Shown: positions 10,902-12,073 of the stretch, in pieces
Layout: the number at the start of each line of letters is the position of its first letter
How positions within the stretch are numbered: position 1 is the stretch's first letter
Origin: Escherichia coli
GTDB taxonomy: Bacteria > Pseudomonadota > Gammaproteobacteria > Enterobacterales > Enterobacteriaceae
Length of the DNA: 64,000 bases
Direction: 5' to 3' (one strand)
NCBI RefSeq assembly: GCF_030013205.1
Contig: NZ_CP122648.1
The notes under the pieces: generated by a model
Database searches by the model: none
Told to the model about the DNA's origin: nothing
What the model saw: only the letters and a program-made list of their open reading frames with translations
Program-made: the position numbers and the translations under genes

Positions 10902-11246
10902 TCATCGTAAAATATCCTCCACGCTTATCAGTCCGTTCCGCTCCAGATAACTCATCGCCTTATCCGGTAATTTGCAGTCTGGCTTCGCTTTCCTCAGTTG
11001 CCAGGTTAACTGCTTTACCAGCATGGTTAACTCATCGACCAGACGCTGATATCCCACTGGTTTGTATTCATGCAATTTACCGGCTGGCTCTGCTGCCAGC
11101 GATACCAGTGCGATTTCCAGAACAGCAATATCCATCTTATATGTGCGGATGATGTCATGGTCGATTGTGCCCGGTATGCACAGTCTCTGTGCTTCAATAG
11201 TCTCCTCTGCGTGAGCTATTAACTGCTCTCTGGTAAAAGTCGTCAT
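10902..11246 (-). CDS. Hypothetical phage protein, 114 aa
   Basis: ATG overlaps stop of upstream HNH gene (ATGA coupling). Confidence 0.5.
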
Positions 11247-11608
11247 GCCGTAGCCCCTTCTTGATATTTTTCAAACCAGAACACAACTGGGTCAGATTTC
11301 ATTTCAACCAATCCCATACGAACCAGCGCTTTGCCTTTCCCGGACGCAAGGAATTCACGACGACCATCACTGATAATTCGCCGATAATCTTCCAGACTAC
11401 TGCAATGCTTGTGCAGATTGCATGGGTGGCATGCCGGAACCATGTTGGATATATCGTCACGTTCCTGGTGAAGCATATTTCCATCAAAACGAATGACCGG
11501 TTTTACATGGTCTGCATGCCACTTTTCGCCAAGTTCGCAGCCGCAATAAGCACAGCGACCGCCGAACTTCATGCGCAGCTCTGCACGTTGTTTTTTCGTC
11601 AGTGCCAT
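11243..11608 (-). CDS. HNH endonuclease
   Basis: 121 aa from ATG at 11608 with AGGAA SD; CAYCG…HADHVKPV…[11 protein letters not shown] motif. Confidence 0.8.
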
Positions 11609-11609
11609 A

Positions 11610-11828
11610 TCAGCTTTCCTTATACGGATTAATTTTATTGTGCAGTGTGTTGAACGACGCCCACACCACGTCGTTATACAATTCAATAACTGGCTCAATT
11701 ATTTTCACGATAAACCAGACCAGTAATAGCGGGGATATCGGTATCATCAACACGATAAATATAATGAGAAACAAAAATTCTGTCGCTCTACTTTTTCTCG
11801 GATATTCTTTTCTGAATAATGTAGTCAT
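11610..11828 (-). CDS. Small single-pass membrane protein, 72 aa
   Basis: ATG start; central hydrophobic stretch FLFLIIFIVLMIPISPLLLVWFIV; abuts the HNH gene. Confidence 0.45.
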   Translation of the reverse strand: MTTLFRKEYPRKSRATEFLFLIIFIVLMIPISPLLLVWFIVKIIEPVIELYNDVVWASFNTLHNKINPYKES

Positions 11829-11860
11829 TTCTTACCGCCCTTTCGGGCGGCCTCCTGACA

Positions 11861-12073
11861 TTAATCATTGTGATAACTCATAGTTTCATTTGCAGCATCA
11901 ACTGGATCAACATCCCACCAGCAATAATTTTGGTCGAGTCCTTCAGGTGTCCACGGTTCTAATTCATTTTTTACCGCATTCTCGTCACCAGTAATTTTAA
12001 AAATCTGCTCAGAAAATTTCCTCACCCACTCGTTATATTTTTCCGCATTAATGGTTTTCTGTGTATTTAACAT
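11861..12073 (-). CDS. Hypothetical phage protein, 70 aa
   Basis: ATG with GGAGG SD. Confidence 0.5.
   Translation of the reverse strand: MLNTQKTINAEKYNEWVRKFSEQIFKITGDENAVKNELEPWTPEGLDQNYCWWDVDPVDAANETMSYHND

Follow-up and report, generated by a model that had tools for sequence, protein, structure and literature searches.

Results

A four-gene cluster in a defective lambdoid prophage

We analysed a 64,000-nucleotide (nt) stretch of Escherichia coli DNA (RefSeq assembly GCF_030013205.1, contig NZ_CP122648.1; hereafter the window) for the nature of a cluster of four short genes at positions 10902–12073, which a reading made from the sequence alone had described as a translationally coupled HNH endonuclease operon with a small membrane protein. 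All four open reading frames (ORFs) lie on the minus strand where that reading had placed them, and in the order of transcription they encode a 70-residue protein (g70), a DUF4014 protein, an HNH nuclease and a 114-residue protein (g114; Table 1). RefSeq lists the identical four coding sequences. The HNH ORF when called mechanically extends to a TTG at 11698; we adopted the ATG chosen by RefSeq, and in alignment the homologues share one N-terminal sequence beginning at that ATG. The four genes with their sizes, the single transmembrane (TM) segment, the HNH assignment, the 1-nt gap and the ATGA overlap are all confirmed. The claim that the four are tightly packed and coupled holds for the three genes DUF4014, HNH and g114: the DUF4014 stop and the HNH ATG are separated by 1 nt (TGAtATG; the joint reads ...AAGGAAAGCTGAtATGGCA), and the HNH stop and g114 start share an ATGA overlap (the joint reads ...GAAGGGGCTACGGCATGACG). 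It does not extend to g70, which is divided from DUF4014 by a 32-nt spacer containing a stable hairpin and is translationally uncoupled from it. All four proteins match PHROG families (E 1e-43 to 1e-57) and the exact proteins recur in sequence clusters of 425–717 members; judged by these matches, the four are more than chance ORFs.

Table 1. Features of the cluster and of its surroundings, by position in the window.
Feature	Positions	Strand	Details
g70	11861–12073	-	70 aa
Hairpin upstream of DUF4014	11834–11851	-	GC-rich, 7 bp, GAAA loop; -20.7 kcal/mol, z = -4.95 (RNA fold)
DUF4014 protein	11610–11828	-	72 aa
HNH nuclease	11243–11608	-	121 aa, counted from the ATG
g114	10902–11246	-	114 aa
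Fifth ORF	10828–10905	-	25 aa, hydrophobic, unannotated; its ATG overlaps the g114 stop (ATGA)
Strong hairpin with T-run	10784–10822	+ / -	+: -21.9 kcal/mol; -: -15.8 kcal/mol, U-rich tail; z about -4 on both
parD/parE with terminator	10141–10822		toxin-antitoxin pair, convergent to the cluster
DUF968 protein	8682–9731	-	C-terminal HNH-like motif
RusA	8310–8669	-	
IS1 insertion	~6153–6850		
Integrase	~19272–20290		frameshifted, adjoins yccA

The chromosome of the swine isolate K_EC180 (enterotoxigenic E. coli, ETEC) matches the window with 100% identity, as do several ETEC strains, and the cluster is hosted by a degraded lambdoid prophage of about 20 kb between tRNA-Ser and yccA. Read in the sense of transcription, the genes are P, DUF1627, DUF977, g137, g70, DUF4014, HNH and g114, past which come the convergent parDE pair, two small ORFs, DUF968, RusA and Q. 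The cluster therefore occupies the nin-equivalent position, between the replication genes and DUF968-RusA-Q. A different setting is found in the intact phage ArgO145, which encodes Shiga toxin (Stx) 2a. There the whole block, including parDE, is part of the leftward early operon, in its distal portion flanked by recT/exo/ssb and int, that is in the exo-xis ("ea") region, and a 1.08-kb insert (an Ead/Ea22-like gene plus two small ORFs) splits g70 from DUF4014. In phage 933W the DUF4014 gene L0067 is followed at an equal 1-nt spacing by an unrelated 95-aa gene, and the HNH gene is not there.

Tight packing is a property of recurrent cassette joints

We compared 92 loci with a near-identical HNH gene, comprising 10 genome places, the home genome, ArgO145 and 80 viral contigs, the last being the best HNH matches and phylogenetically redundant. 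The upstream gene stops 1–2 nt (4 nt once) before the HNH ATG in all 92, and these upstream genes finish ...AAGGAGnnTGAnATG. Those that are not DUF4014 finish ...GCTGGCATTCGCATCAAAGGAGAGTGAnATG, which is the 3′ end of lambda ea22 and encodes AGIRIKGE and the stop. On the other side, an ATGA overlap starts the downstream gene in 88 of the 90 loci with a readable downstream flank. The neighbours themselves are diverse, with about 29 upstream and 33 downstream protein forms. Because the joints recur with varied partners, and the upstream joint is the ea22 3′ end, tight packing is a property of standard cassette joints; the ATGA overlaps and 1-nt spacings seen here mark generic joints and are therefore not evidence of neighbours working together. 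Each cassette supplies the Shine-Dalgarno sequence for the next gene, the ribosome-binding site lying within the last codons of the gene before. We also considered a colicin-like nuclease-immunity pair formed by HNH and g114 and rejected it, since 33 different proteins fill the downstream slot.

Chimeric ORFs of 55 aa were observed (locus L040, positions 1–700) in which an Ea22-type leader (MTTITKER...ASLEAE) is followed by the last 15 HNH residues, encoded by the last 45 nt of the gene, with the join apparently at shared (E/D)PV(V/A) codons. Such ORFs resemble traces left behind by loss of HNH or by microhomology recombination.

The four genes do not recur as one unit

In a census of 5,426 complete E. 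coli genomes, full-length HNH and DUF4014 genes were present in 384 and 1,007, respectively; the DUF4014-HNH pair is contiguous in 216, at least 80% of the 1.6-kb block is present in 178, and a further 318 genomes have HNH fragments only, of which the chimeric ORF just described is one example. The whole block is thus found in only 178 of the 2,258 matching genomes, so that the term "operon" overstates the case: the four are not kept together. The first of them, g70, is missing from many HNH loci and is an independent cassette.

DUF4014 lies directly upstream of HNH in about 70 of the 92 loci, Ea22-like genes precede an identical HNH in about 19, and two loci (L092 and L093) have an extra gene between DUF4014 and HNH. 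About 79% of the DUF4014-bearing E. coli genomes are without HNH, and DUF4014 without HNH is also found in 933W-type Stx phages and in epsilon15. In the Salmonella P22-like phages BIS08P22 and g341c, diverged copies (about 49% identity) are adjacent in the order HNH then DUF4014. The HNH gene is present at 11 of 42 Salmonella-type DUF4014 loci, always immediately upstream and in three HNH subtypes, and absent from the other 31. Diverged HNH homologues with no DUF4014 nearby occur in Salmonella and Klebsiella prophages and in the phages RB49, Bas78 and T1-like IMM-001; that of RB49 adjoins a DNA ligase gene, and a Klebsiella one accompanies true NinE and NinG.

A Shigella sonnei protein of 194 aa (P0002) has DUF4014 fused in frame to HNH. 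It is a single-member cluster from one 3-kb contig, probably produced by a frameshift at the TGAtATG joint, and is the sole Rosetta-stone-type hint linking the two proteins.

The HNH protein is predicted to be an intact zinc-bound nuclease

Residues 19–68 of the HNH protein match Pfam PF01844 with 28.2 bits (cut-off 21.4). The catalytic D-H/N/N motif (D33-H34, N55 and N64) and the [CxxC]2 zinc site are all intact, and an alignment of 46 homologues, which range from Escherichia to Comamonas and down to about 48% identity, shows no variation at C19, C22, C60, C63, H31, D33, H34, N55, N64 and K67. The structure model is confident (predicted local distance difference test, pLDDT, 91) and shows the beta-beta-alpha fold; as modelled, the protein is of an intact zinc-bound enzyme type that is structurally closest to Cas9/IscB-like HNH domains. 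No second Pfam domain was found, and the 121 aa are made up of the HNH core and conserved C-terminal helices specific to this family, which end in PVVFWFE. The small [CxxC]2 phage HNH enzymes assayed so far are nicking endonucleases (PMC3592412, PMC3765158), and by analogy the protein encoded in the window would be a DNA-nicking enzyme.

Several more specific identities were rejected. The match to NinG/Rap (PF05766) scores 18.2 bits against a cut-off of 25.4 and aligns the HNH core only, HK97 gp74 gave no BLASTP alignment and an hhalign probability of 0.3%, and the structural similarity to the dimer fold expected of T4 endonuclease VII was not found. PADLOC returned weak matches to the core alone (best PtuB, E 3e-8, profile positions 20–88 of 227), TIGR02646 scored 21.8 bits against a cut-off of 52, and the NCBIfam IscB and retron-HNH matches were below threshold. 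No full-length effector match was obtained for Septu PtuAB, retron HNH or PDC-M01, and the neighbours are phage cassettes, with no ATPase or reverse transcriptase gene among them. PADLOC found nothing on g70, g114 and the flanking genes; it has no DUF4014 model, and the DUF4014 protein drew only a chance-level match (Csx27, E 0.004). A member of the same HNH family, gene 24 of Salmonella phage g341c (locus L098, 2582–3219), is mislabelled "DNA Repair ATPase".

Presence/absence alleles suggest a mobile HNH gene

Precise empty sites were identified at loci L120 and L125, where the end of the upstream gene abuts the DUF4014 start with a 1-nt gap at the place where L107 and L116 carry HNH; likewise the gene is present in ArgO145 and absent from 933W. 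The family is scattered over lambdoid, P22-like, T4-like, T1-like, Vibrio, Caulobacter and Streptococcus phages, and presence or absence in collinear genomes with sporadic spread is as expected for a homing gene. Nucleotide identity to the window allele in E. coli is about 83–86% in the first two-thirds of DUF4014, rises to 96–100% over the last 60–90 nt of DUF4014 beside HNH, and stays at 93–100% through HNH. Where the downstream gene differs, identity drops to background exactly at the ATGA joint, at the HNH stop. Nearly all E. coli matches to HNH have at least 95% nucleotide identity, whereas the DUF4014 alleles divide into several classes. A free-standing homing-type endonuclease gene would be expected to leave such a pattern, and sequence comparison suggests as much, although ordinary recombination at conserved joints would give it too.

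The DUF4014, g70 and g114 proteins

The DUF4014 protein matches Pfam PF13198 over residues 1–71 of 72 (84.6 bits; cut-off 23.2) and also phrog_1832, and its homologues include 933W L0067 and epsilon15 gp46. It has a basic N-terminus, one TM helix (about residues 17–41; Kyte-Doolittle peak 3.0 at residues 19–37) and a C-terminal tail of about 30 aa, features which indicate that it is probably an inner-membrane protein with its N-terminus in the cytoplasm. Literature searches on DUF4014 and on WP_001229296 found nothing. Two labels attached to its homologues were set aside. "O-polysaccharide acetyltransferase inhibitor", used for g341c gene 23 and in the ArgO145 GenBank record, goes back to an early annotation of epsilon15 and has been dropped from the current epsilon15 record, and no source could be traced in the literature for the RefSeq/PHROG label "released from the phage upon host infection"; both appear to be annotation errors that are spreading. 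The small O-antigen-altering Gnarl proteins (PMC12373910) were considered as an identity for DUF4014, and the text of that paper holds no link to it.

The g70 protein is acidic (pI 4.4) and soluble, and belongs to phrog_4659 (function not assigned; E 1.6e-48); it has no match in Pfam, NCBIfam or PADLOC. For g114, phrog_660, 924, 5117 and 60 match separate halves of the protein. It opens with an MTT(F/I)T helical-hairpin leader, continues through an IALxSLxAEP linker and closes with a C-terminal module of 47 aa that is strongly conserved; alignment of its relatives reveals swapped N-terminal leaders and optional central domains including DUF551; g114, which has no central domain, is the minimal form. 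Its AlphaFold2 model contains helical elements only (pLDDT 78) and returned just generic helical hairpins from Foldseek (E > 0.5), and a PDB sequence search gave noise only. By its domain build, g114 appears to be a stripped-down member of the modular Ea22/EaA-like proteins, a likeness confined to the MTTxT leader, the IALxSLxAEP linker and the cassette position, there being no Pfam match to Ead/Ea22-like PF13935 at E <= 0.01.

Signals, boundaries and neighbouring genes

An AGGAG at 11852–11856 precedes the hairpin in the g70-DUF4014 spacer, and the hairpin ends 6 nt before the DUF4014 ATG. It is kept behind two different upstream genes, with changes that are one-sided and mostly G-U, and belongs to the 5′ junction of one DUF4014 cassette class. 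It is not a standard terminator, because no U-tract follows it; it could bring the distant Shine-Dalgarno sequence near the start codon or stabilise the mRNA. At the other end of the cluster, the hairpin with a T-run (Table 1) should terminate the convergent parDE well and the minus strand less well, and forms the 3′ boundary of the cluster. A consensus terminator scan missed it because its loop is long, and the counts from a scan for internal promoter and terminator consensus sequences equalled those of shuffled controls. The GC content was also seen to change along the cluster (noted at 11600–12200): g70 and DUF4014 are AT-rich at 35–40% GC and HNH and g114 are at 46–50%, a difference which fits separate cassette origins.

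The fifth ORF of Table 1, overlooked by the sequence-only reading, is conserved as a 27-aa form in about 65 related loci (translation and tblastn of the fetched loci) and is found in public protein sets under the label "bacteriophage protein". The window copy has a 6-nt in-frame deletion which removes VV and leaves 25 residues in place of the usual 27. It may be a small membrane peptide that ends the transcription unit. Its clustering with DUF551 proteins was treated as an artefact, there being no sequence resemblance.

The parD/parE pair abuts the cluster and accompanies g114 and the tiny ORF whether the setting is nin, as in this prophage, or exo-xis, as in ArgO145; at other loci an ORF6N or hok/gef gene occupies its place. 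The HNH-like motif of the DUF968 protein is below threshold for HNHc_6 and matches phrog_96 ("HNH endonuclease"); with the adjacent RusA and the HNH gene of the cluster, three nuclease-type genes are found in 3.3 kb. The remainder of the remnant (positions 1–20300) comprises partial tail and tail-fibre genes, the IS1 insertion, a DNA methyltransferase, dicB/ydfC homologues, a truncated DnaT-like/O-like replication gene, a disrupted 3′-5′ exoribonuclease-domain gene and the frameshifted integrase.

Discussion

We consider it probable that the four genes are independent, interchangeable accessory cassettes of the hypervariable lambdoid early region, lying here in the nin-equivalent stretch of a defective prophage. 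They are of the same kind as lambda ea22/ea8.5 and P22 eaA-eaI, exo-xis or ea-type cassettes which occur in either early operon; the suggestion of ordinary nin-region prophage content was thus right as to position and needs refining as to kind. The genes would be transcribed by read-through starting at the early rightward promoter, with translation proceeding by termination-reinitiation at the close joints, and the short joints (...AAGGAGAGTGAnATG, the lambda Ea22 C-terminus IKGE with its stop, and ...GAAGGGGCTACGGCATGAC) would double as recombination swap points. The HNH gene may be a homing-like selfish cassette, copied into HNH-less relatives with a short flank of the neighbouring gene, and a co-copied flank would explain why HNH is so often found beside DUF4014. 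None of g70, DUF4014 and g114 would be a dedicated partner of the nuclease.

Several points weigh against this explanation or its homing component. The 80 viral loci were best HNH matches and are redundant. The DUF4014-HNH adjacency (about 70 of 92 loci, 216 of 384 genomes) is more frequent than naive placement in random slots would predict, and Salmonella phages have it again with the order reversed. Free-standing homing endonucleases that have been characterised typically carry an additional DNA-binding module, and neither Pfam nor the structure model shows one in HNH. Homing co-conversion would account for the identity gradient in DUF4014, but ordinary homologous recombination would do so equally well. 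Finally, the mobility of HNH could be passive, because every cassette here shows presence/absence and sharp joints. Within the cassette explanation we therefore hold the homing mechanism suggested by these comparisons only tentatively, since ordinary recombination fits too and the extra DNA-binding module is lacking. A stronger form of it, which we find doubtful, has HNH acting in temperate phages of the lambdoid and P22-like groups as an active homing-type enzyme with a predicted target in or beside the DUF4014 cassette, nicking or cutting HNH-less relatives during co-infection or co-induction and being copied with a short flank. Activity of this sort would explain the near-monomorphic HNH in many contexts, the empty sites, the position on both sides of DUF4014 in two host genera and the identity gradient.

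The adjacency is also what recommends a functional two-gene module, in which the DUF4014 membrane protein anchors, gates or senses for the nuclease in superinfection exclusion or as an abortive effector, and the pairing of a nuclease with a membrane protein had raised the idea of an effector module from the outset. The two genes are not only adjacent but translationally coupled at the loci and genomes just counted, copies of about 49% identity lie side by side in the opposite order in the Salmonella P22-likes, all 11 HNH-carrying Salmonella-type loci have HNH directly upstream of DUF4014 across three subtypes, and one Shigella contig carries the P0002 fusion. We nevertheless judge such a module quite unlikely. 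Each gene is found without the other: DUF4014 in the 933W-type phages, epsilon15, 31 of 42 Salmonella-type loci and about 79% of the DUF4014-bearing E. coli genomes, and diverged HNHs in Salmonella, Klebsiella, RB49, Bas78 and IMM-001. An identical HNH stands behind Ea22-like genes at about 19 of 92 loci, a gene intervenes at L092 and L093, and the joints are generic across dozens of partners. PADLOC has no DUF4014 model and offers for HNH no defence model beyond the weakly matching core, and the fusion is a single-member cluster on a 3-kb contig and probably a frameshift.

Two other roles for the nuclease were weighed. That it is a housekeeping structure-specific enzyme of the NinG/Rap or T4 endonuclease VII-like kind, trimming branched replication or recombination intermediates, we regard as unlikely; it does sit amid replication and recombination genes (P upstream and RusA downstream here, recT/exo beside it in ArgO145), and a PHROG family labelled endonuclease VII matches it at 2.8e-12, with a weak Pfam NinG match besides. 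Far less probable is a role in DNA packaging like that of HK97 gp74, as a cofactor stimulating cleavage by terminase. The two proteins are near in size (121 against 119 aa), and a 49%-identical family member in Bas78 is encoded about 750 bp upstream of the large terminase gene, but no sequence relation to gp74 was detectable with BLASTP or hhalign, and the Bas78 relative is the only one near a terminase: here, in ArgO145 and in the P22-likes the gene is in early accessory regions far from it. Most lambdoid phages with the same packaging genes are also without this HNH, and the packaging reading is largely refuted by position and sequence.

The sequence-only reading would have been undone by matches to characterised Nin proteins or to homing-endonuclease families with no tie to defence. 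The Nin part of that expectation was not borne out, the families matched being uncharacterised phage ones; the homing part was, in so far as the behaviour of HNH is that of a mobile endonuclease gene standing on its own. Annotations of these genes already exist in hundreds of genomes, and the region is the familiar hypervariable accessory block of lambdoid phages. Two leads remain. One is the homing hypothesis, under which HNH may contribute to the reshuffling of accessory genes, Shiga-toxin phage genes among them; the other is the enrichment of the DUF4014-HNH adjacency itself. If homing is true, the gene would be one driver of exo-xis/nin mosaicism in E. coli with several lambdoid prophages.

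Comparison with known systems

The small [CxxC]2 HNH nickases (Gmet_0936/PDB 4H9D, GVE2 HNHE and N.phiGamma) are mostly encoded beside cos/terminase, unlike the HNH of the window, which also differs from them in having C-terminal helices of its own (PVVFWFE) and is closest in structure to Cas9-type HNH domains. With the free-standing HNH homing genes of T-even phages (mob; the GIY-YIG seg genes are analogous) it shares the form of a small nuclease gene placed between unrelated genes and using host-gene signals, a scattered occurrence over unrelated phages, presence/absence alleles and a short flanking tract of raised identity. It differs in having no accessory DNA-binding domain and in being surrounded by non-nuclease cassettes that are similarly mobile.

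The lambda nin region (ninB-ninI, including NinG/Rap) resembles the cluster in its position between the replication genes and Q, its tightly overlapping stops and starts and its dispensable functions. However, there is no characterised Nin protein among the four, the NinG similarity is sub-threshold, and the Klebsiella relative has the HNH gene besides NinE and NinG. The lambda exo-xis region (ea22, ea8.5, orf61, orf63 and orf60a) and P22 eaA-eaI differ in turn in position, the cassettes of the window coming after the replication genes, where nin would be, and in content, none of the four being a characterised exo-xis protein. The likeness lies in the small non-essential early genes, the hypervariable block and the cassette-like exchange, and is reinforced by the joint upstream of HNH, which is the ea22 3′ end, and by the location of the cluster in ArgO145 and the P22-likes, where it sits in this very region near Ea22/EaA/EaE/EaF homologues. 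The exo-xis genes modulate the lysis-lysogeny decision of lambda and Stx phages (PMC7093339, PMC3824215, PMC8614690).

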